This document shows, piece after piece, positions 7,574-28,935 of a DNA stretch of 64,000 nt; the stretch's first letter is position 1; each line of letters begins with the position of its first letter. The stretch is from positions 22,128-86,127 of the forward strand of contig CAZPQW010000015.1 in assembly GCA_964588985.1 (NCBI GenBank), read 5' to 3'. This stretch comes from an uncultured Solirubrobacteraceae bacterium (lineage in GTDB: Bacteria; Actinomycetota; Thermoleophilia; Solirubrobacterales; Solirubrobacteraceae). A program made the translations under genes and the position numbers. Under the pieces are notes generated by a model, which had not been told where the DNA came from, searched no databases, and saw nothing but the letters and a program-made list of their open reading frames with translations.

Positions 7574-7588
7574 GTCCCGCCTCCCAGC

Positions 7589-8914
7589 TCAGATGCTCGA
7601 CTGGGCCGCTCTGCTCGGGCCGCCGCCGTACTGAAAGACGCGCACGCTCAGTCCTCGCGTGCCCAGCACCGCGGGCAGCGCGATCGAATAGTGATCGAAG
7701 CGATCGAGCGTGAACAGCGCGCGATAGCGCAGCACGCTGCCCTGAAACGCTTCCAGCTCCATGAAGTCGCCCACCGGCCCCGAGCCGCTCGCGCGCACGC
7801 GCCCTCTCCTTGCGCTCAGGCCCACGGTCACACGGCTGACAGAGCCGAAGGGCGAGGTCAGCACGCGCTTGAACGCGGCGAAGGAGCGCTTGTGCCTGCC
7901 GGCCAGGCTCACCACCCCGAATTCTTCGTTGCCGGAGTCCAGCAGCTTGTAGAGCACCGCCGCGGCGACGTAGCGCATGCGGCTGAGGGCATGGAACGTG
8001 TCGAGGATGTTCGCGGCCTGCGTCTGTGCGGTCACGCAGCCCTGTTCCTGCTGGATCTTGCGCCGTGGCCAGCAGCTGGTCCAGCCGAACTCGTCCAGCC
8101 ACAGCGGGGTGGAGTCGCCGTTGGCCAGCTGTGTTTCGTGGATCGAGCGCAGCGAGGCGAGCGTGAGGTTGTAGAAGTGCACGGCCAGCCCGTCGTAGAA
8201 GCCCTTGATGCCCGCCGCGTATAGCGCGCGCAGGAACGCGCCGTTGGAGCCCACGAGCGAGCCGCCGAGGACCATCACGCTCGGGTTGGCTCGCTTGATC
8301 GCCGGGTATGCCGCACGCAGCATCGCCGCGTAGCGAACGGCCTTGTTGGGGCCCGCGAAGTACGCTTCGTTTGACTGGTCGGGCTCGTTCCAGATTTCGA
8401 TTGCGGCCAGCTGTGGGCCGTAGCGCTGGGCGAGATACGCCACGAAGGCCGCGAACGCCTCCGGGTCGGCCGGGCCCCACGAGTTGGCCTTGCTGACCTT
8501 GCCGCCCACACACGCTCGCAGCACGGCGGCGGGTGCGGAGGAGGCCCAGCAGGGCGAGCTCTGCACCAGCATGATCAGTCGCATCCCAGCGCCGGCGGCA
8601 TCCGCGGCCAGGCGATCGGTGTATGCCAGCGCGCGCGGGTCGATCTGGCCTGGCCCGAGCGGCTCGATCACCGACCACGGCACTTCCATGCGCACCACCT
8701 TCGCGTGCAGCTGGTGCGCGACCGCGATCGAGCGGTCCGCCTGGCTCGGAATCGAGCCGCTCTGGACGCTTCCGATGTTCACCCCCCCGATCAGCGTCGT
8801 GGAGGCAGGACGTGCGGCCTGGCCTGCGCCCGCCGCGAGGGAGGGCGAGAGCCCGACGCCCGCGCACAGCGCGAGCGTGAACCAGACGGCTGGTCCGAGG
8901 ACGCGCGTGGCCAT
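7589..8914 (-). CDS. Secreted clan GH-A glycoside hydrolase (GH5/GH39-like)
   Basis: Signal peptide; acid/base motif WNEPD; nucleophile motif LDEFG. Confidence 0.8.
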   Translation of the reverse strand: MATRVLGPAVWFTLALCAGVGLSPSLAAGAGQAARPASTTLIGGVNIGSVQSGSIPSQADRSIAVAHQLHAKVVRMEVPWSVIEPLGPGQIDPRALAYTDRLAADAAGAGMRLIMLVQSSPCWASSAPAAVLRACVGGKVSKANSWGPADPEAFAAFVAYLAQRYGPQLAAIEIWNEPDQSNEAYFAGPNKAVRYAAMLRAAYPAIKRANPSVMVLGGSLVGSNGAFLRALYAAGIKGFYDGLAVHFYNLTLASLRSIHETQLANGDSTPLWLDEFGWTSCWPRRKIQQEQGCVTAQTQAANILDTFHALSRMRYVAAAVLYKLLDSGNEEFGVVSLAGRHKRSFAAFKRVLTSPFGSVSRVTVGLSARRGRVRASGSGPVGDFMELEAFQGSVLRYRALFTLDRFDHYSIALPAVLGTRGLSVRVFQYGGGPSRAAQSSI

Positions 8915-10641: not shown

Positions 10642-11412
10642 TCAGCGGCGCCAGGGCCAGGGTCGTTGCGCAGCGCGCGCGGGCAGGTGTTCGAGCGCGG
10701 GCCGAGGGGGGATCGGTCCGCCGTGGAGGATCGCCGCGGGCACCTCCTCGGCGAGCCACTCCGTCAGCTCGCCCAACCCGGCCTGCTCGAGCTCTTCGCG
10801 GATGCCCGGGGCGCGGCCCTCGAGGTCGTGCGCGTCGGAGGCCACGTTGTGGACCAGCTCTTCCTCCACCAGCTGCATGGCGAAACGGCGCACCGTGCCC
10901 CCGAAGCGACCGACGAGCGACCCCGCGGTGATCGACGTCAACACGCCGTCCGCCACGAGCGAGCGCAGCATGCCGGGATCGCGATGGATCGCGGGACAGC
11001 GCTCCGGATGGGCGAGCAGGATGCGGTGCCCTCGACTCTGCAGCTCTGCCGCGACCGGCTCGAGCGTCGGGGCCACGGGTGCGAACGGCGGCTCGAGCAG
11101 GATCCACTCGCCCCCACCGAGACGCAGCCGCTCCAGCTGAGGACCCTCGATCTCCGCGACCGCGGTCATGGCGATCTCCGCGCCCGGGAGGATCTCGATC
11201 TCCACACCCTCCGCCGCGAGCCGCTCGGTCAGCTCGTCCACGCGAGCGCGGATCGTCTCCGGCCGGTTGGGGTAGCGCGCGCTCACGTGCGGCGTCGCGA
11301 CGATCGTTCGCACCCCCGCCGCGGCCGAGGCGCGCGCCAGAGCCAGCGAGCCCTCGATCGTCTCCGGCCCGTCGTCGATGCCCGGGAGCACGTGGCAGTG
11401 GAGGTCGATCAC
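10642..11412 (-). CDS. PHP-family protein-tyrosine phosphatase (CpsB/CapC/YwqE-like)
   Basis: DLHCHVLPGIDDG, ATPH, AHPER, ASDAH; GTG 11412 is 8 nt after TAACGT. Confidence 0.92.
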   Translation of the reverse strand: MIDLHCHVLPGIDDGPETIEGSLALARASAAAGVRTIVATPHVSARYPNRPETIRARVDELTERLAAEGVEIEILPGAEIAMTAVAEIEGPQLERLRLGGGEWILLEPPFAPVAPTLEPVAAELQSRGHRILLAHPERCPAIHRDPGMLRSLVADGVLTSITAGSLVGRFGGTVRRFAMQLVEEELVHNVASDAHDLEGRAPGIREELEQAGLGELTEWLAEEVPAAILHGGPIPPRPALEHLPARAAQRPWPWRR

Positions 11413-11477
11413 TCGGACATACGTTAGGTCAGAGACCGGTCCTCCCCCAACGCCCACGCGGCGGTTATGATCGTGGC

Positions 11478-11921
11478 GTGTTCAAGTCGATCGTTGTCGG
11501 AACCGACGGCTCGGAGACTGCCACGAAGGCGGTCCGTCAGGCGGCCGACCTCGCTCGCTCGGTGGGCGCCAAGCTCGAGCTGGTCAGCGCGTATGAACCT
11601 GTCCCCGCCCAGCGCCTGAGCGACGAACGTCGTCAGGCGCCCGAGGACCTGCAATGGGCGATCAACCCGCGCGAGGATGTCGACGCGACGCTCGAGGCGG
11701 CCGCGGCCGTCGCGCGCGAGGCCGGCGTCGAGGTGGACGTGTACGCCCGCCAGGGCGACCCTGCGGATGCGATTCTCGATGTCGCCGAGGAGCGCGAAGC
11801 CGACCTGATCGTGGTGGGCAACAAGGGCATGACCGGCGCCAAGCGCTTCCTGTTGGGCTCGGTGCCCAACAAGGTCTCACATCACGCGCCGTGCTCGGTG
11901 CTGATCATCCGCACCAGCTGA
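11478..11921 (+). CDS. Universal stress protein
   Basis: IVVGTDGS and DLIVVGNKG...LLGSVP motifs; TATGAT 6 nt before GTG 11478. Confidence 0.93.
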   Translation: MFKSIVVGTDGSETATKAVRQAADLARSVGAKLELVSAYEPVPAQRLSDERRQAPEDLQWAINPREDVDATLEAAAAVAREAGVEVDVYARQGDPADAILDVAEEREADLIVVGNKGMTGAKRFLLGSVPNKVSHHAPCSVLIIRTS

Positions 11922-11932
11922 GCGGCCGGCGG

Positions 11933-13015
11933 CTAGCTCGCCATCCACCACTCGCCGTCGAGCCGCGTCATCAGCGCGTGCCCGGAGGTGACGGCGCCGA
12001 GCAGGTCGGTGTCGCGGGCGTGGATCAGCGAGCGTGCGCTGAAGCGGAAGAGCGCCCCGCGGTGGGCGACCTCCGCCAGCAGGTTCGCCTCGACGCGCCC
12101 CTGCACCGCCGCGCCGCCGTGCGCGACGGCGTGCGCGAACAGGCTGTCGAGCACCGCGCCCATCTGGCGCTCGCGCGCCGCTATCTGCAGGACCTGGCAA
12201 GCCTCGTCCCGCTTGGCGTAGTAGATGTACCAGCCGAGCATGCGCCCGGCGGCGTCGCGGACGAGGCGCCGGTGCGGAGTGCCCCAGGTGCGGTTGTGGG
12301 GCAGCTCCGCGAACAGCCACTCCAACCCCTCGACCGTGTAGTCGGGCACCAGCCGCAGCGACTTCGCCACCGCCGGCAGGCTGTCCAGTAACAGCTCGGG
12401 CGTGAGCTCCTCGTCGGTCGTGGTCAGGCCCGTGGGCGCCTTGAAATAGCGCAGCCGCTCGGTCGGGATGTCCAGCAGCGGGAGCAGCCGCCGCGCGCGC
12501 GGCTTGATGTGCTCGCGCACGTGCAGGTTGATCTGCATTGCGCGATTGCCGGTGTAGCTAAGCGGGCGAAACACGCGCACCCACACCATGCTGCTCGGGT
12601 GCATCATCTGCCCGCCCACCAGTTCGAAGATCTGGCGGATCTCGTCCGAGGCGCCGTCGGTGATCGTGAGATCCTGCGCGCCGCCGAAGAAGCGCCGCAG
12701 CAGCCTCGCCCCGACACCGAGGTTGCGGACCTTGGGGTGGGCGATCAACGGTCCGCCCGCGGCCAGCCGCACAGGTCGGCCGTCGAAGCGCATCGGGCGC
12801 ACGTGCGAGCCGATGAAGCCGAGGATCTCCCCCGAGTCGTCGACGTACACGAGGCTCGGGATCTCGGGGTCGAACCAGGGGTTGTCGAACAGCGTGCGCT
12901 CGAGCCACGGCGCGAGTTCCGCGGGCGGTATGCGCCAGTCGGAGGCGTCCACGACTTTGTACAGCTCCGCCACCTCCGGGATCTCGTCCCTGCGCATCGG
13001 GCGCATCTCGCTCAC
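11933..13015 (-). CDS. Double-GNAT-fold acyl/aminoacyl transferase
   Basis: HPKVRNLGVG motif A; 360 aa, consistent with two GNAT domains; overlaps the carrier protein gene. Confidence 0.7.
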   Translation of the reverse strand: MSEMRPMRRDEIPEVAELYKVVDASDWRIPPAELAPWLERTLFDNPWFDPEIPSLVYVDDSGEILGFIGSHVRPMRFDGRPVRLAAGGPLIAHPKVRNLGVGARLLRRFFGGAQDLTITDGASDEIRQIFELVGGQMMHPSSMVWVRVFRPLSYTGNRAMQINLHVREHIKPRARRLLPLLDIPTERLRYFKAPTGLTTTDEELTPELLLDSLPAVAKSLRLVPDYTVEGLEWLFAELPHNRTWGTPHRRLVRDAAGRMLGWYIYYAKRDEACQVLQIAARERQMGAVLDSLFAHAVAHGGAAVQGRVEANLLAEVAHRGALFRFSARSLIHARDTDLLGAVTSGHALMTRLDGEWWMAS

Positions 13016-13263
13016 GAGGACACCTCCGCCGACTCGATCATCCTGGCCATGGTCGAGAGTGTGCGCAGGGAATCGATCTCCAGCGAGTCGAGCGGGATCT
13101 CGATCCCGAACTCCTGCTCGATCGCGAACAGCAGCGACACGAGCGTGAGGGAGTCCAGCAGCGCCCCATCGATGATGTCGAGGTCCGGCGCGGGCGCGGA
13201 CATGCTGAGCGTGTCCTCGAAGATGCGCCCGATGCGCGCGACGATCTCCTGTTCACTCGTCAT
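13012..13263 (-). CDS. Acyl/aminoacyl carrier protein
   Basis: 83 aa, acidic, LDSL phosphopantetheine site, EQEFGIEIP. Confidence 0.92.
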   Translation of the reverse strand: MTSEQEIVARIGRIFEDTLSMSAPAPDLDIIDGALLDSLTLVSLLFAIEQEFGIEIPLDSLEIDSLRTLSTMARMIESAEVSS

Positions 13264-14818
13264 TGGATAGCGCCGCGAATCGTTCTTTGAGCAGCCGTCG
13301 GTCGGCCTTGCCGCTCACGTTGCGCGGGAGCGATTCGAGCTCGAGCCATTGCGTGGGCAGCATGTAGCTAGGCAACGTGTCGGCAAGCGCGCTGCGCAGC
13401 TTGAGCTGGTCCAGCTCGGCGCCCACGCGTGGCGACCAGGCGCAGCAGATGCTCGCGCCCTCGAAGCCGTCGCTCTCCACCGCCACCACCGCGCATTCCG
13501 CCACGCCGTCGACTGCGGTGAGGGCGGTCTCGATCTCACCCAGCTCGATGCGGTAGCCGCGGCTCTTGATCTGGGAGTCCACGCGTCCCACGTAGTGCAG
13601 GACGCCGTCCTCGTCCACGCGTCCGAGGTCGCCCGTGCGATACAGGCGCAGGCCGCTGTCGTGATGGACGACGAACGCCGCGTCGGTCTTCTCCCGGTCG
13701 CGCCAGTAGCCGGGGCTCAGTCCCGCGCCCTCGATGTACAGCTCGCCGATCTCACCGGGCGCCACCGTCCGCAGCTGCTCGTCGAGCACGACGATGTCCT
13801 CGCCTGCGCAGGGAACGCCGATCGGGATCGGCACGGTGGTGTCCCGCGGAGCGCTCTCGACGGTGTGAAAGCTCGACGCGATCGTCGCCTCGGTCGGCCC
13901 GTACAGGTTCGTGTAGCTCGGCTGGGGCACGCGCTCCATCCAGTGGGCGAGCACCGCTGGCGCGAGCACCTCTCCGCACCAGATCACGCGACGCAGCGCG
14001 GGGAAGTCTGCCTCCTCGATCGCGTTTCCGCTGACCATGTAGGCGAACGTGGAGGGCACCGAGAACCACTGCGTGAGCTCCGAGTCGCGGATGAACCGCG
14101 CGAGCTGCGAAGGCAGCAGCGTGCCCGGTGGAACCAGGTGCAGCTCCGCGCCGCTGGAGAGCGTGCCGTAGATGTCGAACGTGGAGAGGTCGAAGTGCAG
14201 CGGCGGGTGGCCGGAGATGCGATCGCCCGGACGGTGGCCGAAGTGGGCGAGCGCCCAATCGAGGAACGCGCTCACCATCGCGTGTGTGATCACGACGCCC
14301 TTGGGCGTGCCGGTGGAGCCGGAGGTGAACAGGATGTGCGCGGGATCGGAGGGTGAGCTCGCGGTGGGGAGGGGCGCGTCGTCGAGGCTCGAGAACGCCT
14401 CGGGTCCGAACGCCGCCTGCTCGAGTGCGCCCTCGACGGAGCCCAGCTCCGTTCCGCCCAGCTCGAGCGTGTCCGCGAGCTTGCCCGCCTTCTCACACGC
14501 GAGCACCAGCCGCGGCTCGGCGGAGGAGAGAATCTTGTTCACGCGCGGGGCGGGGCTCGCGATGTCCACCGGTACGTACACGCCGCCTGCCTTGAGCGTC
14601 GCCAGCATGCTCACGATCGCCATCGGCGCCTTCGGCTGCAGCAGCACCACGCGATCGCCCTGACGGACGCCCCGTTCGAGCAGCAGCCGTGCGAGCTGGT
14701 TGCTCGTGCGCTCCAGCTCGCCGTAGGTGAGCTCCTGCGAGCCCATCGCCACGGCGCGTGCGGTCGGCCGCTCCCGCGCGGAGAGTGAGACTCGCTCGTG
14801 CAGCAGCATCGGCGCCAT
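13253..14818 (-). CDS. Stand-alone amino acid adenylation enzyme (DltA-like)
   Basis: FTSGSTGTPKG, FDLS, YGPTE, YRTGD, GYRIELGEIE, SGKADR. Confidence 0.92.
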   Translation of the reverse strand: MAPMLLHERVSLSARERPTARAVAMGSQELTYGELERTSNQLARLLLERGVRQGDRVVLLQPKAPMAIVSMLATLKAGGVYVPVDIASPAPRVNKILSSAEPRLVLACEKAGKLADTLELGGTELGSVEGALEQAAFGPEAFSSLDDAPLPTASSPSDPAHILFTSGSTGTPKGVVITHAMVSAFLDWALAHFGHRPGDRISGHPPLHFDLSTFDIYGTLSSGAELHLVPPGTLLPSQLARFIRDSELTQWFSVPSTFAYMVSGNAIEEADFPALRRVIWCGEVLAPAVLAHWMERVPQPSYTNLYGPTEATIASSFHTVESAPRDTTVPIPIGVPCAGEDIVVLDEQLRTVAPGEIGELYIEGAGLSPGYWRDREKTDAAFVVHHDSGLRLYRTGDLGRVDEDGVLHYVGRVDSQIKSRGYRIELGEIETALTAVDGVAECAVVAVESDGFEGASICCAWSPRVGAELDQLKLRSALADTLPSYMLPTQWLELESLPRNVSGKADRRLLKERFAALSNDE

Positions 14819-14836
14819 CCCAGCCAGCTCCTGCGC

Positions 14837-15829
14837 TCAGGACGCGTTCGCCCGCGCCTGCTCGAAAACCACACCGATGTGGTGCAGCTCCTCCTCGGAG
14901 GCGGGTATGTCGAGGATGAAAGAGTGAAAGCCGAGGTCGACGTAGCGGCCGAGCTCGGCCGCGACCTGCTCGTGGCTGCCGACCAGGTAGGGGCAGAACG
15001 TGGCGTAGTTCTCGAACGGCCACAGCCAGTAGGGGTCGTCCTCGACCGCCGTCTGCGCCGCCATGTCCGACAGCTGGCGATGCCAGTGTGAATCGGACAC
15101 CTTCATCGCGAGCTTGTGCGCGATCTGACCCTTGCGGTCGTCGGGGAAACGCTCGCGTGCGACGCTCCACGCCTCCTCGCCGCTCTCGCGCGTGACGATG
15201 CCCACACGTATCCCGGAGGCCTCGCCGCCCTGGTCGGCCTCTTCGCCGGAGCGCTTGGGGTACTTCACCGGCACCGCGCCGATCCGCCCGGCCGCCTCGA
15301 GCCCGGCCGGCGATGACCCGGAGATGAACAGGCCGGGTTGCAGATCGCTCGACAGCTCGGGGGCGAGACTCAGGTTTGACACCGAGTAGTACTCACCTGT
15401 GAAGGTGACGGTCTCGCCCGCCAACAGGCGTGTGACGATCTGGGTGTACTCCACCGTGCGCTCGTAGCGCTCGTCGTGAGGTGTGTCGTCACACAGCGCG
15501 AGCAGGTCGTTGCGAAATCCTCCCGCGACCATGTTCAGGTACACGCGACGCCCGTGGAGATACCCGAGCGTGCTCACCATCTTCGCGACCGAGTACGGAT
15601 GCATGTACGCGGACTGCACCGCCACGAGCGGCGCGAGGCGCTCGGTGTGTTCGATGACCGTCTGGGAGACGAGCCACGGGTCGGCGATGCCGTTGTCCGT
15701 GTAGACGAGCATCCCCTCGCATCCGGCCGCCTCGCTCCAGCGGGCCGTGTCGATCACGCGCTGTAAGTACTCGTCCGGCGAACTGTCCCGGGATTGCGGA
15801 CAGGTCGAGAATATGGCGAGGTCGGGCAC
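14837..15829 (-). CDS. LLM-class flavin-dependent oxidoreductase
   Basis: Luciferase-like motifs HPYSVAKMVSTL, LNMVAGG, FTGEYY, SGSSPAG; AGAGGA RBS. Confidence 0.88.
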   Translation of the reverse strand: MPDLAIFSTCPQSRDSSPDEYLQRVIDTARWSEAAGCEGMLVYTDNGIADPWLVSQTVIEHTERLAPLVAVQSAYMHPYSVAKMVSTLGYLHGRRVYLNMVAGGFRNDLLALCDDTPHDERYERTVEYTQIVTRLLAGETVTFTGEYYSVSNLSLAPELSSDLQPGLFISGSSPAGLEAAGRIGAVPVKYPKRSGEEADQGGEASGIRVGIVTRESGEEAWSVARERFPDDRKGQIAHKLAMKVSDSHWHRQLSDMAAQTAVEDDPYWLWPFENYATFCPYLVGSHEQVAAELGRYVDLGFHSFILDIPASEEELHHIGVVFEQARANAS

Positions 15830-15865
15830 GGTGTTGTTTTCCTCTTGGCCGCGAGTCTAGGCCAC

Positions 15866-17617
15866 TCAGCGCTTGCGCACAAGGAAATCCTCGAGGAACA
15901 GCGCCTCGATGCCCGTTCCCAGAAATGTGTCCAATGCCTCGGCGGGAGTGTTCACGATCGCCTGGCCTTTGACGTTGAAGCTCGTGTTGAGGAGCATCCT
16001 GCGTCCGGTGTGAGCGCCGACCGACTCGAGCAGCGTGTGAAACTCGCCGTTGTCCTCCTTTGAGACGGTCTGCACGCGCGCGGATCCGTCCACGTGTGTG
16101 ATCGCCGGAAGTCCCGCGCGATGCTCGGGGCGAACGTCGCGGTTGATCGTCATATAGGGGAGCGCCGTTCCGGCCGGGGCGTCGAACCAGCGATCGACCT
16201 CCTCGAGCGCAACGGCGGGCGCGAACGGACGGAACGACTCGCGCATCTTCACCAGCGCGTTCACACGGTCGCGCATGTCCGCCCTCCCTGGATCGGCGAG
16301 GATCGAGCGGTGCCCGAGGGCGCGAGGGCCGAACTCCATCCGCCCGCGGTACCACGCGATCACCTCGCCCGCCGCGATCAGCCGTGCCGCGGACTCGCAC
16401 ACCTCGTCCAACGACCCCAGGCGCGTCGCCTCGACACGGTCGTCGTAATCGCCGAGCGCGCTTTCGATCGACTCGACCGAGTGCGCGGGACCGTAGAACG
16501 GGGTGGGAGAGCGACGGTTGACGATCTCGCCGGCAAGCGATGCGCGATGCAGCGCCGCGCCGAGCGCGGAGCCATCGTCGGCGGCGGCCGGCTGGACGTA
16601 TATCTCCTCGAACGCGCCCGACGCGAGCAGCTTGCCGTTCGCGGTCGTGTTCAGCGCCACCCCGCCCGCCAGCGCCAGCCGCCTCATCGAGAGCTGCCTG
16701 CCGAAGTGCGAGCACGTGTGCTGGATGGCCCGATCGAGACACGCCTGCAGGCCGGCCGCCACATCCTCGTGCTCGGAGGCGATCTCCGACTCCGGCTCGC
16801 GCGCCGCGATCAGTCGTTCCCCCAGATACCGCCGCGCGGCGAGGTGGTTCTCGCGCTCCTCGCGCTCGCCGAGCTTCAACGCCGCGATGCTCCAGCCGCC
16901 GTCGTCGGTGAACCGCACCGCGTCGTCGAAGAAAGCGCGGAAGCGCTCGGGGTCTCCGTATGGGGCGAGGCCCATGATCTTGTACTCGTCGGAGTTGAAG
17001 TCGAAGCCGAGGTGCAGCGTGATGAGCGAGTAGAAGATTCCGATCGAGTCGGCCGCGGAGATCCTGTGGATCAGCTCCAGCGTCCCACCGCTCGTCCTGT
17101 AGATGGACGCTCCGTGCGCCTCGCCCATGCCGTCGATCACAGCCACCATGCACTCCTCCCAGCCGGAGGTGAAGTACGCGGAGGCGGCGTGGGAGAGATG
17201 GTGGTCGACGTGCCGAATGCGATCCGTGGGGAACTCCGGGAAAGCGTCGGCGACCCTTGCGGCGAAGGCCTGCGGTGAAAGCACTTCGCGATACAGCTCG
17301 CTCGAGACGGGGCTGAGGGAATACGGCACGCGATATGGCCCGTAGTCGAACGAGTGCACGATCTCGTCGACGTCCGACAGCCGCAGGCCGGCCTGCGCGA
17401 GGCACGCTTCGATCGCCCCGACCGGGAAGTCGCCGGTGTGCTTGCGGCGAGCGATGCGCTCCTCGGCGACGGCGGCGACGACCTCGCCGTCGATCACGAG
17501 TGCGGCCGCCGAATCGTGCCCCTGCGAGATGCGGTATTCGCGCTCCTGCAGATCGGGCCAGTGCCGACGCTTGAAATCCATCGTCCCGTCGATGCCGGAG
17601 ACGCCGACGATCCTCAT
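15866..17617 (-). CDS. O-carbamoyltransferase (NodU/CmcH/TobZ family)
   Basis: HDSAAA, EER, HHLSHAASA, DGMGE, EYKIMGLAPYG, EFGPRALGHRS, RESFRPFAP, NTSFN; start ATG 17617. Confidence 0.95.
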   Translation of the reverse strand: MRIVGVSGIDGTMDFKRRHWPDLQEREYRISQGHDSAAALVIDGEVVAAVAEERIARRKHTGDFPVGAIEACLAQAGLRLSDVDEIVHSFDYGPYRVPYSLSPVSSELYREVLSPQAFAARVADAFPEFPTDRIRHVDHHLSHAASAYFTSGWEECMVAVIDGMGEAHGASIYRTSGGTLELIHRISAADSIGIFYSLITLHLGFDFNSDEYKIMGLAPYGDPERFRAFFDDAVRFTDDGGWSIAALKLGEREERENHLAARRYLGERLIAAREPESEIASEHEDVAAGLQACLDRAIQHTCSHFGRQLSMRRLALAGGVALNTTANGKLLASGAFEEIYVQPAAADDGSALGAALHRASLAGEIVNRRSPTPFYGPAHSVESIESALGDYDDRVEATRLGSLDEVCESAARLIAAGEVIAWYRGRMEFGPRALGHRSILADPGRADMRDRVNALVKMRESFRPFAPAVALEEVDRWFDAPAGTALPYMTINRDVRPEHRAGLPAITHVDGSARVQTVSKEDNGEFHTLLESVGAHTGRRMLLNTSFNVKGQAIVNTPAEALDTFLGTGIEALFLEDFLVRKR

Positions 17618-17689
17618 CGCTCTGAGGTCCCTGCGGCTGTGACGAATCCGGTCGGGCCCATGGAAGCCTCGGTAGCCTACCTGGCCCGG

Positions 17690-18709
17690 ATGCGTCCTCT
17701 CGTGGTGCCATACCTGTACGTTCACGGCCCCGGCGAGTCGTTCGACTATCCCTCCAGCCGCTCGCAGGGACGATCCGCGCAGCTTGCGGCCCGCTACCTG
17801 GAGTGCGTGCTCGTGCAGGCCGGCTCGCTGCGACTGCGCGATGTCGACTGCGACGTGGCGCTCGTCACCAACGTTGCGGATCGAAGCGCCGTGGGCAGAC
17901 GCGGCGCGCGCCTGCTGGAGGAGATCGAGGCGCTTGGAGTGGAGGTCGTGCACGCCGACTACGAGCACCGTCCGTCCGTGGAGATCGCCACGTTCGCCGC
18001 CTCCAGGTACGTATTCGACGCGATCGCCGCGGTCGCCGGCGAGGGAGCCCCGCAGCGGCAGATCTGGCTCGTGGACGTGGACTGCGTGTGGGTCGATCCG
18101 GCGAAGGTGTTCGCCGCCGCGCCCGCCTCCCCGGGCATCGGCTGCATCCACATCCCCTACCCGCCCGACTGGGAGCTGTACGGGTTCACGCCTCAGACGA
18201 TGGGCGAGCTCGCGCATCGCCTCGGCGCCTCAGACACCTCACTGCGGTGGGTGGGCGGCGAGCTGCTGGCGGGAACGACCGTGGACCTGCGCGCGCTTGT
18301 CTCCGACTGCGAGCAGCTCGAGCGCGAGCTGGCCGCGCAGGGTCAGGCGCTCACGACCGAGGAGCAGCTGCTCTCGCTCGCGGGCGCGCTCGGACGCGTC
18401 CAGTTCCACGACATGTCGAGCGTCGCGCAGCGCATCTGGACCGGTCCGCGCCACGGCGCTCCCGCGGTCAGCTCGCCGGGGTCGCTCGGGCTGTGGCACC
18501 TGCCGAGCGAGAAGGGCCTCGGCTTTCGCCGCGCCGCGCGCGCGATCGTCTCGGGGCACGCCGGGCGCCTCGTTCGCGACCTCGACTCGCCGGAGCGCGC
18601 GCTCAAGCGGTTCAACGTGGCGGGCGCCGGCCTGCCCCGCCGGATTCGCGACGACAGCTGGCTGACGATGCAGCGGCTGCGCGATCGCCTGCTGTCCAGG
18701 GCCGGGTAG
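17690..18709 (+). CDS. Hypothetical protein, possibly a divergent GT-A glycosyltransferase
   Basis: DVDCVW (DxD), WVGGE, TEEQLLS, WHLPSEK; start uncertain (17660 or 17690). Confidence 0.6.
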   Translation: MRPLVVPYLYVHGPGESFDYPSSRSQGRSAQLAARYLECVLVQAGSLRLRDVDCDVALVTNVADRSAVGRRGARLLEEIEALGVEVVHADYEHRPSVEIATFAASRYVFDAIAAVAGEGAPQRQIWLVDVDCVWVDPAKVFAAAPASPGIGCIHIPYPPDWELYGFTPQTMGELAHRLGASDTSLRWVGGELLAGTTVDLRALVSDCEQLERELAAQGQALTTEEQLLSLAGALGRVQFHDMSSVAQRIWTGPRHGAPAVSSPGSLGLWHLPSEKGLGFRRAARAIVSGHAGRLVRDLDSPERALKRFNVAGAGLPRRIRDDSWLTMQRLRDRLLSRAG

Positions 18710-18723
18710 TTACCCTCGTGGCT

Positions 18724-19947
18724 GTGAGCGCCGAGCCAGCCGACGCCCCCGCACCCGAGCAAGCCGTCGCCGGGCGGGTTCTCGTCGTCGAGCAGGGGGG
18801 GCGCGGTGGCGTCGCGGACTACACCGCCGAGCTGACGCGCGCGCTCGCGGCCCAGGGCTGGCAGGTGACGCTGGCGACCGCGGACGACCACCTCTTTCAG
18901 CCGACCCCGGGAGTCGAGGTCCGCCGCGTGTTCCACTACGTGCGCGGGCACGACCAGGTGGCGCAGGCGGTCCGCCGGACGGGGCTCGGCCCGATCGTCA
19001 ACTCGCTGCGCTTCCTCGCTGCGATCCCCCGTCTGCTGAGGCTCGCCCGCCATGCCGACGTGATCCACACGGAGGGGTGGGAGTACGCGCCGCTCGGCGT
19101 GATCGCGGTCGCCGCCCTGCGGCTGGCGCGCGTGCCGATCGTGCAGACCTCGCACAACACGTTCGAGCGCGGCCGCTCGCTGGACCGCAGCCATGCGTGG
19201 CTCGCGCGGCTGACGTCCCACACGATCGTCCATACCGAGGCCGATCTCGCGCGCGTCCCGAGCACGGCGGCGGGGCGCGTGAGCGTGATCCCCCACGGCG
19301 AGTACGGCGGCCTCGCGCGCGCAGGAGGCGCGGCCGACCGCGACGCGTCCCGCGCCGAGCTGGGCATCGCGCCTGACACGCCCGTCACCCTGCTGTTCGG
19401 CCAACTGCGCCCGGACAAGGGCCTCGGCGACACGCTCGCCGCGGTCGCGCGCCTCCCCGGTCTGCACCTGCTGGTGGCCGGCGAGGAGCGCGGGGCGCTG
19501 GCGGGCGCGAGCGAGCAACTGGCCGACCCGCGGCTGGAGGGCCGTGTGACGGTGCGCGAGGGGTTCCTCGACATGAGCGAGGCGGCCAGGCTGTTCGCGG
19601 CGAGCGACACGGTCGTGCTCCCCTACATGGTCGCCAGCCAGAGCGGGGTGCTCCTGCTCGCGTACGGCTTCGCGCGGCCGGTGGTGGTGTATCCGGTCGG
19701 GGGGCTGCTCGAGTCGGTCGTCGACGGCGAGACCGGCTGGGTCTGCGCGCGGGCGGACGTCGACGCGCTCGTCGACGCGCTCGCGCAGGCGATGGAGGCG
19801 GGCTGGATCGAGTGTCGCCGGCGCGGGGAGGCGGGCGCTCGCCTGGCCCAGGAGCGCTACGCGTGGCCGGCGATCGCGCGCAGCACCGGGCAGGTCTATC
19901 GCGCCTTGCTAGCTGGTATGACTGCCACGTGGCCCGCCACCGCATAG
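18724..19947 (+). CDS. Glycosyltransferase family 4
   Basis: GGVADY, FGQLRPDKG, LPY..ASQSGV; TACCCT 7 nt before GTG 18724. Confidence 0.9.
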   Translation: MSAEPADAPAPEQAVAGRVLVVEQGGRGGVADYTAELTRALAAQGWQVTLATADDHLFQPTPGVEVRRVFHYVRGHDQVAQAVRRTGLGPIVNSLRFLAAIPRLLRLARHADVIHTEGWEYAPLGVIAVAALRLARVPIVQTSHNTFERGRSLDRSHAWLARLTSHTIVHTEADLARVPSTAAGRVSVIPHGEYGGLARAGGAADRDASRAELGIAPDTPVTLLFGQLRPDKGLGDTLAAVARLPGLHLLVAGEERGALAGASEQLADPRLEGRVTVREGFLDMSEAARLFAASDTVVLPYMVASQSGVLLLAYGFARPVVVYPVGGLLESVVDGETGWVCARADVDALVDALAQAMEAGWIECRRRGEAGARLAQERYAWPAIARSTGQVYRALLAGMTATWPATA

Positions 19948-22202: not shown

Positions 22203-23059
22203 TCAAGTCGTGGCTCAAGCGGCTGTCGCCGTCGCTGCAGGATCGGCTGCGACGGCTCTCTCGTCTGCGCTGGCTCGAGAAGGCACGCCTCACGAGGTAC
22301 TACGGCGTGTCCTTGTGGGCTCGGCCTCTGCGGGTCGCCAGGTACGTGCTGTGGGCCCCCGACGTGGGCGACTTCTCCTACGAACTGGACAACGAGGTGG
22401 AGCTGGTGTCGTTCCTCGCGAGCGCGCTCGCGCTGGAGCCCGCGCTGGTGCGGCGCTATCTCGACGAGATCCACACGTCGCCCGAGGTCACCCATGACCT
22501 CGCCACGACGGTTCGCCGGCGGCCCGACATGTCGCGTCGGCCCGGTCTCGGCCATCGCGTGGCGTGGTATGTGGTCGCCCGCGCGATCAAGCCGCGGCTG
22601 GTCGTCGAGACGGGCATCAAGCACGGGCTGGGAGCGCTCGTGCTGCTCGTGGCGCTGGACCGCAACGCACGCGAAGGCAGCGAGGGAAGGCTGATCTCCT
22701 TCGACCCCGACCCGGCCAGCGGTTGGGTCGTCCCCGCGGCGATGCGCGGCAGCTGGAGGCCGGTGTTCGAGACGAGCTTCGACGCCTTCGACGAGCAGCT
22801 CGACGGCGAGCAGATCGACCTGTTCGTGTGCGACACGCCCCCCGACACGGAGATCGAGGACTTCGAGATGCACGCGGCGCTGCGCCACGCGGCGCCCGGG
22901 ATCGTGCTGATCGCCGCCAACGGCGATCGCACCACGGTGCTGCCCGACCTCGCGGCCGAGCGCGGCGGCGACTACCGCTTCTTCGCCGAGCGCCCGCGGC
23001 ACCCGATCTACCCAGGCGGCGGGCTGGGGCTGGGGCTGGCGCTGGGGGTGCGGTCATGA
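22199..23059 (+). CDS. Class I SAM-dependent methyltransferase (Methyltransf_24-like)
   Basis: VVETGIKHGLG, LISFD, IDLFVCD. Confidence 0.8.
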   Translation: MIKSWLKRLSPSLQDRLRRLSRLRWLEKARLTRYYGVSLWARPLRVARYVLWAPDVGDFSYELDNEVELVSFLASALALEPALVRRYLDEIHTSPEVTHDLATTVRRRPDMSRRPGLGHRVAWYVVARAIKPRLVVETGIKHGLGALVLLVALDRNAREGSEGRLISFDPDPASGWVVPAAMRGSWRPVFETSFDAFDEQLDGEQIDLFVCDTPPDTEIEDFEMHAALRHAAPGIVLIAANGDRTTVLPDLAAERGGDYRFFAERPRHPIYPGGGLGLGLALGVRS

Positions 23060-23784
23060 GGCGCGCGGTGATCCTCGCGGGCGGCGAGGGCACGCGCCTG
23101 CGCCCCTACACCACCGTGCTGCCCAAGCCGCTGATGCCGATCGGCGACCGGCCGGTGCTCGACATCGTTGTGCGCCAGCTGAAGGCGCACGGCTTCGAGC
23201 GGATCACGATGGCGACCGGCTACCTCGCGGAGCTGATCGAGGCGTTCTTCCGCGACGGCTCGAGCTACGGCATCCCGATCGACTACTACCGCGAGCCCGA
23301 GCCGCTCGGCACCGTCGGAGCGCTCGCCCTGATCGGCGGCCTCGCCGCCCAGGACGTGCTCGTGATGAACGGCGACGTGCTCACCGACATCGACTACGGC
23401 GCGCTGCTCGCGCGCCATCAGGCGAGCGACGCGGCGGCGACGATCGCGACCAAGACGCGCGAGATACGCGTGTCGCTGGGCGTGCTGCGCTTCGGCGAGG
23501 ATGGCGACCCCACGCGCCTGACCGGCTACGACGAGAAGCCCACGATCGACTACACCGCGAGCATGGGCGTCTACTGCTTCGCGCCGCGCGCGCTCGGCTT
23601 CATCGAGCCCGGCGAGCGCCTCGACTTCCCCGACCTGATCCTTCGCCTGATCGCCGCCGGGGAGATCGTGCGGGCCTGGCCGAGCGAGGACTACTGGCTC
23701 GACATCGGCCGCCACGACGACTACGAGCTAGCCCAGGAAGAGTTCGAGTCGGTGCGGGATCGGCTGTTGCCGCCGGAGGTTTAG
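23056..23784 (+). CDS. Sugar-phosphate nucleotidyltransferase
   Basis: ILAGGEGTRLRP, PKPL, EPLGTVG, NGDVLTD, WLDIG; ATGA overlap with upstream gene. Confidence 0.93.
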   Translation: MRRAVILAGGEGTRLRPYTTVLPKPLMPIGDRPVLDIVVRQLKAHGFERITMATGYLAELIEAFFRDGSSYGIPIDYYREPEPLGTVGALALIGGLAAQDVLVMNGDVLTDIDYGALLARHQASDAAATIATKTREIRVSLGVLRFGEDGDPTRLTGYDEKPTIDYTASMGVYCFAPRALGFIEPGERLDFPDLILRLIAAGEIVRAWPSEDYWLDIGRHDDYELAQEEFESVRDRLLPPEV

Positions 23785-25649: not shown

Positions 25650-26789
25650 CTAGGCGAGAGCCGCGCGCACAGCCGCGACCACCATCTCCAGCTTGGCCTC
25701 ATCCATAGTCGAGCTGAGCGGCAGCGCGCAGTGCCTGCCGGCCACCTCAGTCGCATGCGGCAGCCCGTCGGTCGGTGCGATCGCGCGGTACTCGGTGAAC
25801 GAGTGCAGCGCCGGGTACCACGTGGTCTGGATCCCGTCCGCTTTGAGATCGTCGCGGAAGCGGTCGCGCGTCTCGCGGTCGGCGAGCAGCACTGGAAACG
25901 CGAAGTGCGAGGAGCGCTCGACGGCGGGCTCGTCAAACGGCAACTCCAGGCCAGCAATCCCCGTGAGCCGCTCGCGGTAGGAACGCACCAGCTCGCGCCG
26001 GCGCGCGATGTCCTTGTCGAGCCGCTCGATGCGGCTCAGCCCGAGCGCTGCGCGGGGCTCGTCGAGGCGGTAGTTGAAGCCGATGTCGACGACGTCGTAG
26101 GCGGGGTCGTGGCCGCGGTGGCGGTCCCAGGTGGTGCTTGTCATCGCGTGCGAGCGCAGCAGCCTTACGCGCGCGGCCATCTCCTCGTCGGCGGTGGCGA
26201 CCATGCCGCCCTCGCCGACGCACAGCTGCTTCTTGGAGAAGAAGCTGAACGCGCCGAGCTCGCCGACGGTGCCCACGTGGCGCCCGTGCTCGTCCGCGAG
26301 CGCGCCGATCGCCTGCGCGCAGTCCTCGATCAGCACGAGCCCGCGCTCGTCGCAGAGCGCCCGGAGCGCATGCAGGTCGGCGGGGTAGCCGCAGAAGTGC
26401 ACCGCGACGATCGCGCGCGTGCGCGGCGTGATGCGCCGCTCGGCGTCCCGCGGGTCGATGTTGAAGTCGAGCGCTCCGCGCACGTCGCACAGCACGGGCT
26501 CGGCGCCGACGTAGCGCACCGCGGCGGCGCTCGCGACGAACGTGAAGGCGGGCACGACCACCTCGTCGCCCGGGCCGATCCCGGCGGCGAGGCAGGCGAG
26601 GTGCAGCGCGGCGGTGCCGCTCGACACGGTGACCGCATGCGGCGTGCCCACATACTCGGCGAGCGCCTGCTCGAAGCTCTGCGTGCGCGGGCCCATCGTC
26701 AGCCAGCCCGACTCCAGGCACGCCATCACGGCCTGCACGTCCTGCTCGGGCATCGCGATGTCCGTGAGTGGTACGCGCCAGTCGCTCAT
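25650..26789 (-). CDS. DegT/DnrJ/EryC1/StrS sugar aminotransferase
   Basis: SSGTAALHLA, EDCAQA, FSFFSKK, GEGG, GFNYR. Confidence 0.95.
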   Translation of the reverse strand: MSDWRVPLTDIAMPEQDVQAVMACLESGWLTMGPRTQSFEQALAEYVGTPHAVTVSSGTAALHLACLAAGIGPGDEVVVPAFTFVASAAAVRYVGAEPVLCDVRGALDFNIDPRDAERRITPRTRAIVAVHFCGYPADLHALRALCDERGLVLIEDCAQAIGALADEHGRHVGTVGELGAFSFFSKKQLCVGEGGMVATADEEMAARVRLLRSHAMTSTTWDRHRGHDPAYDVVDIGFNYRLDEPRAALGLSRIERLDKDIARRRELVRSYRERLTGIAGLELPFDEPAVERSSHFAFPVLLADRETRDRFRDDLKADGIQTTWYPALHSFTEYRAIAPTDGLPHATEVAGRHCALPLSSTMDEAKLEMVVAAVRAALA

Positions 26790-27937
26790 CGCGCGAGCGC
26801 TTCCTTCAACGCGGCGGCCACGCGGACCTGGTCCTCGTCGGTCATGTGCGGGTAGAACGGCAGCGTCAGCTCCGTGCGCGACGCCAGCTCGGTGATCGGC
26901 AGCGACACGTCGGGGAAGCGCTCGCTGTAGGCGGAGAAGCGGTGGATCGAGGGGTAGAAGATGCTCGTCTGGATGCCCAGCTCGCGCAGCCGGCTCGAGA
27001 TCTCCGCCTGGCGCCCGTCCTGCTCGATCATGATCGGCATCACGTAGCAGGAGGAGCCGGGGATGTCCTCGTCCTCGAACGGCACGACGATCCCCTCGAT
27101 CTCGCCCAGCAGCTGGCGGTAGCGCGCTGTCAGCTCACGGCGGCGCGAGATGTCGTCCTCCAGGCCACGAAGGCGCGAGAGCAGCAGCGCCGCGCGCGGC
27201 TCGTCGAGGCGGTAGTTGAAGCCGAGGCCGACCACGTCGTAGGTGTCGGTGCGGCCGCTGTGGCGGTCCCACGTACCGCTCGTCATCGCGTGCGACCGGC
27301 GCGAGCGCACGAACGCCGCCACGTCGTCGTCGTCGGTGCACAAGAGCCCGCCCTCGCCCACCGAGAGGACCTTGTTGGAGAAGAAGCTAAACGCTCCCGC
27401 GAGACCCCAGGTGCCGAGCTTGCGTCCGTGCAGCGTCGCGCTCGGGGCGTGCGCGACGTCCTCGATCAACGCGATCCCTCGCTTGGCGCACAGCTCGCTG
27501 AGACGGTCGGCCGCGCCCGCGTAGCCGGCGTAGTGCACCACGCACACCGCCTTCGTGCGCGGCGTGATGCGCCGCTCCACGTCCTCAGGGTCGAGGCTCG
27601 GGAGCTTGCGCGAGACGATCTCCGTGAACACGGGCGTCGCGCCGCAGTAGAGGACCGCGGCCGCCGTGGCAGCAAAGGTAAAAGAAGGAACGATCACCTC
27701 ATCGCCTGGACCGACGCCAGCCGCCAAATAGGCGAGGTGCAGCGCGGCGGTGCAGCTCGACAGCGCGATCGCGTGACGTGCGCCCAGCTGCTTGGCGAAC
27801 GCCTCCTCGAACTCGGCCGTCCGCGGGCCGAGCGTCAGCCAGCCGGAGCGCAGGGTCTCGGCGACCGCCTCGAGGTCTCGCGGCTGCAGCTGCAGGTCGA
27901 ACAGCGGGAGCTCGGGAAACGCGTTGGTCGCGGCCAT
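26786..27937 (-). CDS. DegT/DnrJ/EryC1/StrS sugar aminotransferase (paralog)
   Basis: SSCTAALHLA, EDVAHA, FSFFSNK, GEGG, GFNYR. Confidence 0.95.
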   Translation of the reverse strand: MAATNAFPELPLFDLQLQPRDLEAVAETLRSGWLTLGPRTAEFEEAFAKQLGARHAIALSSCTAALHLAYLAAGVGPGDEVIVPSFTFAATAAAVLYCGATPVFTEIVSRKLPSLDPEDVERRITPRTKAVCVVHYAGYAGAADRLSELCAKRGIALIEDVAHAPSATLHGRKLGTWGLAGAFSFFSNKVLSVGEGGLLCTDDDDVAAFVRSRRSHAMTSGTWDRHSGRTDTYDVVGLGFNYRLDEPRAALLLSRLRGLEDDISRRRELTARYRQLLGEIEGIVVPFEDEDIPGSSCYVMPIMIEQDGRQAEISSRLRELGIQTSIFYPSIHRFSAYSERFPDVSLPITELASRTELTLPFYPHMTDEDQVRVAAALKEALAR

Positions 27938-27957: not shown

Positions 27958-28935
27958 TCAGGGAATGTTCTTGTAGCGGGGGTCGAAGGGATCGCCGAAC
28001 GCGCCGGCGTCGAGCGCCGCGATGATCTCCCCGATCCCGTCGGGGACGGTCATCAGCGTCTCGAAGCCGAGCTCCGCGCGGATCCTGTCGAAGCTGACCT
28101 TGTAGTCGCGCGGGTCCTCGTCACGACGCACGTAGGAGACGCTGCCGCGGTCGATCTGCTTTTTGATCTCCTCCACGAGGTCGAGCTTGCGGTAGTTCTC
28201 GCCCGAGCGCCCGGCGTTGAAGACCCTGCCCGCGACCTTCTCCTCAGGAGCGTCGAGCGCGGTGCGAACCGCGCGCGCGGCGTCGCGCACGTGGATGTAG
28301 GGGCGCCAGAACTGCTCGCCGAACACCTCCAGCTCGCGGTTGGACCACAGTTCGCGGGTGAACTCGTTGACCGTCAGGTCGAAGCGCATCCGCCGCCCGA
28401 CGCCGTACACCGTGGCGAAGCGCAGACACGTGGGCTTGGTCTCACCCGTCCCGCCGCCGAGGATCAGCTTCTCCATCGAGACCTTCTGCTCGGCGTACAG
28501 CGACACCGGGCGCAGCTCGCCGTCCTCGGTGATCGGCACCGACGGGTCGGCCATGCGGCCGTAGTTGGAGCACGTGGAGGCGAACACGAGCCGCTCCACG
28601 CCCGCGGCGTTCGCCTCCGTGACGAGCGAGCGCGTGGCCTGGACGTTGACCTCGTCGGCTTCCTCCGGGTCGAGGGCGCAGGCGGGGTCGCCGACGATCG
28701 CCGCGAGGTGCACCACCTCCTGGACGCCGTCGAGCGCACGCGAGCGGGCGTCAGCGTCGCGCACGTCGCCACGGATCACGAGCACGCCCGCCTGCTCCTG
28801 CTCGGCGGCGATGTCCTCCTGGCCGTGCAGTAGCCGGTCGAGCACGCGCACGTCGCGCCCGCTCTCCAGCAGCTCGCGCACGAGCAGCGCGCCGATGTAG
28901 CCGCTGCCGCCCGTGACCAAGGTTGTGTTGCCCAT
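27958..28935 (-). CDS. NAD-dependent NDP-sugar epimerase/dehydratase
   Basis: TGGSGYIG, HLAAIVG, YAEQK; TAGCAT 7 nt before ATG 28935. Confidence 0.92.
   Translation of the reverse strand: MGNTTLVTGGSGYIGALLVRELLESGRDVRVLDRLLHGQEDIAAEQEQAGVLVIRGDVRDADARSRALDGVQEVVHLAAIVGDPACALDPEEADEVNVQATRSLVTEANAAGVERLVFASTCSNYGRMADPSVPITEDGELRPVSLYAEQKVSMEKLILGGGTGETKPTCLRFATVYGVGRRMRFDLTVNEFTRELWSNRELEVFGEQFWRPYIHVRDAARAVRTALDAPEEKVAGRVFNAGRSGENYRKLDLVEEIKKQIDRGSVSYVRRDEDPRDYKVSFDRIRAELGFETLMTVPDGIGEIIAALDAGAFGDPFDPRYKNIP

Follow-up and report, generated by a model that had tools for sequence, protein, structure and literature searches.

The charge of a bacterial surface polysaccharide, its antigenicity, its properties as a phage receptor and its behaviour as a material are set by non-sugar substituents; to our knowledge, little is understood of the enzymes that join amino-acyl groups to amino sugars. 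The decoration of glycoconjugates with acyl groups by way of a carrier protein is a known theme: DltABCD D-alanylates teichoic acids, and AlmEFG of Vibrio adds glycine to lipid A. Nod factor synthesis involves the deacetylase NodB, the N-acyltransferase NodA, which works with the acylated form of NodF, an acyl carrier protein (ACP), and the carbamoyltransferase NodU. RfbK-O of Vibrio cholerae O1 are concerned with tetronate, and the 4-amino-2-hydroxybutyrate (AHBA) side chain of butirosin is the work of BtrI, BtrJ, BtrK, BtrO, BtrV, BtrH and BtrG. In this report, we analyze a set of five genes present on a 64,000-nucleotide stretch of DNA (hereafter the window) from an uncultured soil actinobacterium of the Solirubrobacteraceae. 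The genes lie in tandem on the minus strand (positions 11933-17617) and encode a carbamoyltransferase (CT), a luciferase-like monooxygenase (LLM), a stand-alone amino-acid adenylation enzyme (A), an ACP and a protein made of two GNAT folds. Our main finding is that they form a real, conserved and uncharacterised module, of which the donor half (CT-LLM-A-ACP) is separable from the transfer half (the GNAT and a glycosyltransferase, GT), and in which CT gives way to a formyltransferase (FT) in other lineages; neither the separable halves nor this exchange figured in an earlier note on this DNA. On balance we favor, with modest confidence, a reading in which a small aminoacyl group is assembled and modified on the carrier before it is grafted onto a sugar amine of a polysaccharide.

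Among described systems, the butirosin side-chain pathway may be the closest working analogy. Its BtrO is a monooxygenase of the flavin/F420 superfamily that hydroxylates the side chain of a carrier-bound aminoacyl group, and its BtrH is a papain-like transferase (PMC2922099, excerpts). Both systems would have in common an aminoacyl group built on a carrier, its hydroxylation by a luciferase-family enzyme while tethered, and its transfer to the amine of an amino sugar. They differ in the loader, which is an ATP-grasp protein in butirosin and an adenylation enzyme here, and in the transferase, papain-like in the one case and a tandem GNAT in the other; moreover, the module has no decarboxylase and no gamma-glutamyl protecting cycle, would add a carbamoyl or formyl cap, and would act on a unit of a polysaccharide rather than on an aminoglycoside. 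None of the butirosin families (ATP-grasp loader, pyridoxal-phosphate-dependent decarboxylase, papain-like BtrH) is represented among the five genes, and the ACP and the LLM superfamily alone are shared.

The Dlt and Alm systems are alike in that a DltA-like stand-alone A enzyme would load a small amino acid on a dedicated carrier, from which it is donated to a surface glycoconjugate. The donating enzyme there is an MBOAT/DltD pair or an LpxL-type enzyme, whereas here it would be a soluble tandem GNAT; in addition, the module contains an LLM and a CT or FT, its A enzyme and ACP score below the cut-offs of the DltA and DltC models, and no match to MBOAT/DltB (PF03062) or to DltD (PF04914) was found in the genome, which is 96% complete, by searches that did match the positive controls in Bacillus subtilis and Lactococcus lactis. 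With the Nod factor, the module would share the placing of a carrier-bound acyl group on a free sugar amine, a CT of the NodU family and, in loci of the FT type, a NodB-family deacetylase, but there the group transferred is a fatty acid, the product of NodE/NodF, rather than an adenylated amino acid, and NodA is not a GNAT. O-antigen cassettes for N-acylation, such as wfpC-G of Flavobacterium psychrophilum with its O-antigen-specific ACP and an N-acyltransferase predicted to act on UDP-Qui2NAc4N (PMC6519341, excerpts), also place a dedicated carrier in a polysaccharide locus together with an acyltransferase whose predicted reaction is the N-acylation of a nucleotide amino sugar. Their chemistry is of the ketosynthase/reductase or LuxC/E type and their transferase a PglD-type left-handed beta-helix protein; no amino-acid adenylation enzyme is known from these cassettes, nor any SsuD-like LLM, tandem GNAT or carbamoyltransferase. 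Finally, linear gramicidin synthetase LgrA, which has an F domain, A domains and a peptidyl carrier protein, provides the best solved match of the A enzyme, but the module has no condensation domains, and LgrA is not among the 44 solved matches of the FT, the best of which is ArnA. The earlier note had been unable to match the cassette to any characterised pathway; we found none either, and keyword searches of the open-access literature, a collection that leaves most subscription journals outside its coverage, returned no paper on this gene combination, but the logic of butirosin and of the Nod factor is closer to the module than that note suggested.

Module conservation was examined with the GNAT as bait for homologues, from which 78 loci of species-representative genomes were taken, with up to 10 kb on each side. 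LLM, A, ACP and GNAT were detected together by tblastn with the window proteins in 44 of these 78 loci (the core loci), and CT additionally in 25 of the 78. When 1,160 called proteins were clustered independently, all against all, the GNAT fell in 74 loci, A in 57, ACP in 56, LLM in 51 and CT in 28; these locus counts include the window's own region. The order LLM-A-ACP is invariant across loci and the GNAT mostly comes next after the ACP; since the order recurs in 44 of 78 related loci, the arrangement is not a matter of chance. The module spans Actinomycetota, Gemmatimonadota and Pseudomonadota, its holders being Solirubrobacterales, Gaiellales, Egibacteraceae, Acidimicrobiales, Pseudonocardia, Gemmatimonadales, Burkholderiales and eleven Actinomycetospora records, most of them cultured strains that include several type strains. 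It is also rare and patchy: among 401 genomes sampled evenly from the phylum (a count that includes the window's own genome and one GNAT-positive genome, G166, flagged as unpublished), the GNAT family occurs in four and the LLM subfamily in two, both of which hold the GNAT as well, and eight other genomes of the window's own family have neither. On a wider scale, a GNAT profile run against 1.84 billion representative proteins gathered 1,173 clusters at E<=1e-30.

The setting of the module points to glycan synthesis. In the window, Pfam searches confirm the earlier note's placing of the cassette inside a polysaccharide locus: about 40 kb around it form a Wzx/Wzy-type locus, with two Wzy-like proteins, an initiating Bac_transf protein, many GT4 enzymes, Wzx, a tyrosine kinase, a CpsB phosphatase, two DegT aminotransferases, an epimerase/dehydratase and an NTP-transferase. 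Phosphatase and initiating transferase genes flank the cassette on one side and GT genes on the other, all within this single locus. The DegT pair is PseC/ArnB-like, with scores below the model cut-offs, and is the probable source of the acceptor amine; DegT and epimerase genes also adjoin the module in nine other loci. More generally, at least 34 of the 44 core loci contain one or more members of recurrent glycan gene clusters, and 25 contain at least two, the clusters counted being GT, Wzy, Wzx, Bac_transf, DegT, epimerase, NTP-transferase, deacetylase and CpsB. These figures are lower bounds, because annotation was confined to clusters from at least three loci and because of the shortness of several contigs; of the ten loci that appear to be exceptions, two (L065 and L035) do hold glycan genes by direct Pfam scan. 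The earlier note would have given up the link to glycan synthesis had the cassette usually occurred away from polysaccharide genes, and the link stands.

The Actinomycetospora loci show how the module comes apart. Six records carry GNAT, a GT of 660 amino acids, CT, LLM, A and ACP as a single unit, with no other glycan gene nearby. In three further loci (L052, L067 and L069) the GNAT-GT pair is within a full Wzx/Wzy locus, and in all three genomes the LLM orthologue is on a different contig; for two of these genomes the neighborhood was retrieved, and in both the orthologue is part of a CT-LLM-A-ACP unit that lies apart from glycan genes. CT therefore goes with the genes that make the donor, and the GNAT with glycan assembly. 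In all nine loci the GNAT is followed by the 660-amino-acid GT (for example L049:11096-13072), which has a weakly GT2-like amino-terminal half and a GT4 carboxy-terminal half. In L092, this detached CT-LLM-A-ACP unit has no glycan genes around it. A separate set of glycan genes lies downstream of the module in L005 and L010 (about 11.6-16.8 kb), where a GH6 glycosidase, a GlxA/galactose-oxidase-like protein and a GT2 of 630 amino acids occur together; the set is present in several Solirubrobacterales loci and resembles the cslA-glxA-cslZ glucan locus of Streptomyces.

The ACP and the GNAT are closely tied. The ACP scores 33.8 bits with PF00550 (cut-off 20.8), its best NCBIfam match being DltC (NF003464) at 31.7 bits, under the 68-bit cut-off, and its Asp37 and Ser38 are invariant in 26 of 26 homologues. 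An ACPS-family phosphopantetheinyl transferase domain occurs once in the genome, and another lies beside the module in L065. Such features are those expected of a carrier protein for which a phosphopantetheinyl transferase is available. The AlphaFold2 (AF2) model of the GNAT (22 homologues, pLDDT 88.7) shows two GNAT folds in one chain, and a fold search of about 48,000 representative chains matched it to N-myristoyltransferase (NMT; Z 20.4, 308 residues aligned, rmsd 4.8), Eis (Z 18.4-18.6), the tandem GNAT MAB_4324 (Z 18.4), several uncharacterised tandem GNATs (Z 17-19), a glucosamine N-acetyltransferase (Z 16), MshD (Z 14.1) and FemA (Z 11); in a Foldseek search of the PDB, only N-myristoyltransferases were among the matches listed. 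The double GNAT of the earlier note is thus borne out. The GNAT gene directly follows that of the ACP in 39 loci; 23 of these show a 4-nucleotide overlap of ACP stop and GNAT start, start sites being those of a composition-based gene caller. Furthermore, four of the 12 longest proteins among the 150 best GNAT relatives (P0157, P0177, P0192 and P0197, each from a different 50%-identity cluster) are fusions in which a PP-binding domain with the DSL serine precedes the GNAT. Since such ACP-GNAT fusions occur naturally, we argue that the family acts on carrier-bound groups; together with the translational coupling, they support the earlier proposal that the GNAT works with the carrier. The neighbors of P0177 (L042:9707-11128) are unrelated genes, for a beta-lactamase-fold protein and a dienelactone hydrolase, and an adenylation enzyme is lacking within 10 kb. 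Prediction of a GNAT-ACP complex gave a score of 0.00, which is no answer and counts neither for nor against binding. The trees of the GNAT and of A contain the same main clades. One further relative, P0237, is an 801-amino-acid protein joining a GNAT to an ATP-grasp domain.

As for the cargo, the A enzyme scores 395.7 bits with TIGR01733, over the cut-off of 317.4. The DltA models come next at 316-326 bits, below cut-off, and the DltA equivalog TIGR01734 gives 315.9 bits against a cut-off of 559.85; no DltA over cut-off was found in the window's own genome, in that of L078 or in 41 genomes of its phylum. Solved A domains of nonribosomal peptide synthetases (NRPSs) match with E values from 1e-132 to 1e-66, LgrA being the best (1e-132, summed over two domains). 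The ten specificity residues read DLFFICLIAK in the window and DLFF[I/L/M]CLIAK in 40 of 43 module A enzymes, the other three having Tyr at the third position. The Asp that binds the alpha-amino group and the catalytic Lys are kept at aligned positions in all 43, which makes an alpha-amino acid the likely cargo and supports the earlier claim that an amino acid is loaded. The remaining pocket positions are hydrophobic and bulky and therefore suggest a small neutral amino acid. Because the residues are near-constant in CT-type and FT-type loci alike, whatever the accessory genes, it would be the same one across all lineages, and alanine/D-alanine or glycine are our best guesses. At the ACP end of the CT-LLM-A-ACP unit of L092, a protein of 634 amino acids (5714-7618) carries alanine dehydrogenase/PNT domains, a weak hint at alanine.

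The LLM belongs to a distinct SsuD/MsuD-like subfamily. Its AF2 model (pLDDT 89.9) matches the folds of MsuD and SfnG (both Z 29.2; for MsuD, rmsd 2.6 over 288 residues), RutA (Z 27.3), a sulfoquinovose monooxygenase (7oh2, Z 26.6) and an oxygenase domain of a hybrid polyketide synthase/NRPS (Z 22.5). With the SsuD equivalog TIGR03565 it scores 118.8 bits, under the cut-off of 518. In the HMMER alignment, the 'girlh' stretch of SsuD corresponds to 'girvg' of the LLM, so that the Arg is kept and the His replaced by Gly, and the SsuD Cys is replaced by Ile. We take this His beside the Arg, and the Cys, to be active-site residues of SsuD (their roles and numbers are assumed). A role as an alkanesulfonate monooxygenase was rejected because of the scores under cut-off and the loss of the aligned active-site His and Cys. 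The subfamily has a mean column identity of 62% over 28 sequences from three phyla and, among the 401 genomes sampled, is specific to the module; an ESM Atlas search with the LLM returned generic LLM clusters only. Directly upstream of the LLM in L037 (5651-7063), L038 and L073 is a fusion of NTP_transferase and Flavin_Reduct domains, whose nucleotidyltransferase part is homologous to the window gene at 23056-23784. This fusion fits a two-component, FMN-dependent oxygenase and ties the LLM to nucleotide-sugar metabolism. The single Flavin_Reduct gene of the genome from which the window comes is on another contig. Use of FMN by the LLM is thus predicted, and its features are those of a two-component monooxygenase.

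The CT is over cut-off with both Pfam carbamoyltransferase domains and belongs to the NodU/CmcH/TobZ family; with the NodU equivalog NF041651 it scores 155.1 bits against a cut-off of 1000. Its closest solved proteins are NovN (9s2t, E 7e-111), GdmN (4e-103) and TobZ (4e-80), and the alignment with NovN is full-length, H-x-x-x-H stretch included. By clustering, 28 loci have CT, 15 loci without CT carry an FT with Formyl_trans_N and Formyl_trans_C domains, and none has both. The FT takes the operon positions of CT: it lies immediately upstream of the LLM, immediately downstream of the GNAT or between the two. On the tree of the A enzymes (43 enzymes, quick IQ-TREE run, 10 of the rows without a label), a minimum of three switches between CT and FT is required, and well-supported branches force them. 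For instance, the CT-type Actinomycetospora are nested in Pseudonocardia and Egibacteraceae of the FT type, and the FT-type Burkholderiales have the CT-type Gemmatimonadales as their sister group. CT is exchangeable with an ArnA/Fmt-like FT in other lineages. Identity between Actinomycetospora and the window is 40-42% for CT, far below that of LLM (61-64%) and A (57-59%), which suggests a separate recruitment of CT in Actinomycetospora.

The domain identities, the conservation of the module, the tie of ACP to GNAT, the two separable halves, the glycan setting and the alternation of CT and FT are borne out by the observations above. In the mechanism that we favor, every chemical step is one that we infer, including the amino acid, the reaction of the LLM, the capped atom, the order of the steps and the acceptor. 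In the donor half, A would activate one small neutral alpha-amino acid and load it as a thioester on the dedicated, DltC-like carrier. The LLM, supplied with reduced FMN by a separate flavin reductase, would oxygenate the carrier-bound residue, and CT would add a carbamoyl cap from carbamoyl phosphate and ATP, as FT would add a formyl cap in other lineages. In the transfer half, the tandem GNAT would move the finished acyl group from the carrier to a sugar of the Wzx/Wzy polysaccharide, to an amine or, less likely, to a hydroxyl, the most plausible acceptor being an amino sugar made by the DegT aminotransferases. If hydroxylation were followed by O-carbamoylation of the new hydroxyl, the FT variant would need a separate explanation. 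If both enzymes were to cap the alpha-amine, the product would be an N-carbamoyl or N-formyl oxygenated aminoacyl amide; the formyltransferases of the FT superfamily are N-formylating, and LgrA, which formylates a carrier-bound amino acid, is a precedent for the FT variant. A bolder version, which we regard as possible but rather unlikely, holds that a hitherto unrecognised, carrier-dependent family of tandem GNATs spread over several phyla (about 1,170 clusters at E<=1e-30) acts with the SsuD-like oxygenase and an interchangeable carbamoyl or formyl capping enzyme; the result would be a glycan substituent of a new class, namely an alanyl or glycyl group that is oxygenated, N-capped and made in the cytoplasm independently of DltB/DltD. 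Such a substituent would possibly be a ureido- or formamido-hydroxy acid, or a hydroxamate-like unit.

Several observations weigh against the carrier-built, capped aminoacyl group. The assignment of its amino acid depends on pocket positions mapped by eye from the LgrA alignment, with GrsA numbering. A GNAT relative without LLM or A nearby is present in 22 of the 78 loci (clustering), and in two of five genomes whose GNAT relative stands without the module, no LLM orthologue was found. The target of CT and FT is the point of which we are least sure. The nearest characterised CTs (NovN, GdmN, TobZ and NodU) O-carbamoylate hydroxyls of sugars or macrolides and not a carrier-bound residue; the FT is nearest to the sugar formyltransferase ArnA (E 5e-21), then to Met-tRNA formyltransferase (2e-14); and a polysaccharide deacetylase is found in eight of 15 FT loci but in none of 28 CT loci. 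This company suggests that the FT may act on the sugar, in an Arn-like scheme of protection and deprotection, in which case CT and FT need not be equivalent; the pair of FT and deacetylase recalls either the formylation and deformylation of Arn or the deacetylation and re-acylation of Nod factors. Nine of the 44 core loci have neither CT nor FT in the DNA sampled, so that the cap is not obligatory.

These points lead to a Dlt-like charge modification made by a route in the cytoplasm, which we hold to be unlikely: A and the carrier would supply an unmodified D-alanyl or glycyl group that the GNAT places on the glycan, while the LLM and CT or FT act on the sugar. That the closest solved FT works on a nucleotide amino sugar and the closest solved CTs on sugar hydroxyls would fit this route, as would the deacetylases beside FT and the match of the LLM to the sulfoquinovose enzyme 7oh2, whose substrate is a sugar. 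In NCBIfam, A and ACP have DltA and DltC among their best matches, and the A enzyme has Cys at the sixth pocket position, where the D-alanine-activating DltA presumably has its selectivity Cys, a hallmark of that enzyme. All DltA and DltC models are nevertheless below cut-off, DltB and DltD are absent, the LLM-A-ACP block is invariant and, in the genomes sampled, the LLM subfamily is found only with the module. The two split Actinomycetospora genomes examined keep CT with LLM-A-ACP, and not with the GNAT-GT pair or the glycan locus, which, together with the alternation of CT and FT, speaks for a carrier-bound target of both.

We consider it quite unlikely that the product is not part of a polysaccharide but a small metabolite of the N-acyl amino-acid type, a lipid or a peptide, the presence in glycan loci being incidental or limited to some lineages. 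Stand-alone A enzymes, carriers and tailoring enzymes are typical of secondary metabolism, and recurrent glycan genes were not seen in ten of the 44 core loci; L077, L026 and L092 are core loci with non-glycan flanks, the ACP-GNAT fusion of L042 lies amid unrelated genes, and in L044 the module stands beside lasso-peptide-like genes. There (L044:3199-9886, Acidimicrobiales), GNAT-A-ACP-FT-LLM come directly after genes for Asn-synthase-like, PqqD, transglutaminase-like and ABC-transporter proteins, and these neighbors look like a lasso-peptide cluster. This explanation has to face the 34 or more core loci with glycan genes and the two of the remaining ten that hold them by direct scan, the pairing of GNAT and GT in nine Actinomycetospora loci, the fusion of the flavin reductase to a sugar nucleotidyltransferase, and the position of the window cassette inside one locus, with phosphatase/initiating transferase genes on one side of it and GT genes on the other.

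Very unlikely, finally, is a GNAT that is an ordinary sugar N-acetyltransferase using acetyl- or acyl-CoA, with the carrier product off-loaded by another enzyme or by hydrolysis: its amino-terminal half keeps the R-x-x-G-x-G/A pyrophosphate-binding loop typical of CoA binding, so that an acyl-CoA donor is conceivable, its closest solved folds (NMT, Eis, MshD and glucosamine N-acetyltransferase) all use acyl-CoA and it has relatives without the module, but PP-binding-GNAT fusions arise in four separate clusters, the ACP/GNAT overlap recurs, the module shows no conserved association with another acyltransferase, a thioesterase or a condensation domain, and the GNAT and A trees agree in their main clades.

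The module is a portable and defined set of four conserved genes and a cap enzyme, and its cultured, non-pathogenic hosts, several Actinomycetospora type strains among them, make it testable. Should the carrier-built, capped aminoacyl group prove true, the Dlt and Alm routes would have an alternative that is soluble and built on a GNAT, flavin monooxygenases of the SsuD branch would have gained a new function, and carbamoyl/formyl swapping would be seen to occur in nature; the finding would also aid the annotation of about a thousand 'hypothetical GNAT' genes. Taken as a whole, the observation of the earlier note holds in all its details, and its interpretation is partly supported.

The features of the window are listed in Table 1.

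Table 1. The five module genes of the window, with neighboring genes of the same locus
Feature	Position	Strand	Length and main match
Carbamoyltransferase (CT), NodU/CmcH/TobZ family	15866..17617	-	583 amino acids; Carbam_trans_N 188.8 bits, Carbam_trans_C 219.4 bits
Luciferase-like monooxygenase (LLM), SsuD/MsuD-like subfamily	14837..15829	-	330 amino acids; Bac_luciferase PF00296, E 3.8e-36
Stand-alone amino-acid adenylation enzyme (A)	13253..14818	-	521 amino acids; AMP-binding, E 2.3e-82
Carrier protein (ACP) with DSL phosphopantetheine-attachment serine	13012..13263	-	83 amino acids; PP-binding, E 4.1e-8
Tandem (double) GNAT, proposed carrier-to-acceptor transferase	11933..13015	-	360 amino acids; one weak match, Acetyltransf_1 on residues 33-108
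Two DegT-family sugar aminotransferases	25650..27937	-	DegT_DnrJ_EryC1, E 1.9e-108 and 3.8e-105
NAD-dependent sugar epimerase/dehydratase (context)	27958..28935	-	Epimerase, E 7.6e-46
Sugar-1-phosphate nucleotidyltransferase (context)	23056..23784	+	NTP_transferase, E 1.9e-39
Conserved hypothetical protein, divergent from CT	17660..18709	+	349 amino acids; high third-position GC; tblastx conservation

The genome of the window is 3.4 Mb in size, the window itself has about 70% G+C, and the nearest relatives of its genes are in metagenome-assembled Solirubrobacteraceae genomes. From the coordinates, CT and LLM are 36 nucleotides apart and LLM and A 18, while A and ACP overlap by 11 nucleotides and ACP and GNAT by 4. 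CT starts with the Met of 'MRIVGVSG' at 17617, the longer open reading frame (ORF) to 18217 being, from its translation, upstream read-through. No condensation, ketosynthase or thioesterase domain was found in any window ORF scanned; this, with the genome search for DltB and DltD, agrees with the earlier description of five tightly packed, co-oriented genes lacking all of these. The condensation domains of the genome are confined to another contig, C1, and an NRPS fragment as the identity of the cassette was rejected, its contig being without a condensation domain. On C1, a large NRPS cluster (about 128-172 kb) contains numerous adenylation and condensation domains, and at its edge lies the sole ACPS-family phosphopantetheinyl transferase domain of the genome. 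A scan of 11400-18900 for promoters and terminators gave nothing exceeding shuffled sequences, and PADLOC assigned no defence family to any of seven proteins tested.

The start codons of the 349-amino-acid protein and of CT are 42 nucleotides apart. By tblastx the protein is conserved in L012, L004, L005, L007, L008 and L010; it is divergent from CT in L012, and co-oriented and directly upstream of CT in the five others. No Pfam or PADLOC family was found for it, and it carries a DxD-like 'DVDC' stretch; possible identities are a GT-A-like enzyme and, for the lineage of the window, a sixth cassette member. Another protein, of 441 amino acids (7589-8914, minus strand), has no Pfam or NCBIfam family and adjoins the CpsB phosphatase in 15 related loci. 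Towards the other end of the window, G+C falls to 0.61-0.66 at 44-50 kb and 60-64 kb, and confident gene calls are few at about 46.3-50.5 kb. The stretch 45821-46333 encodes an FHA-domain protein; a phage-type integrase gene lies close to the end of the window (61152-62465), and the stretches of low G+C with the integrase may mark the edge of a mobile or variable region.

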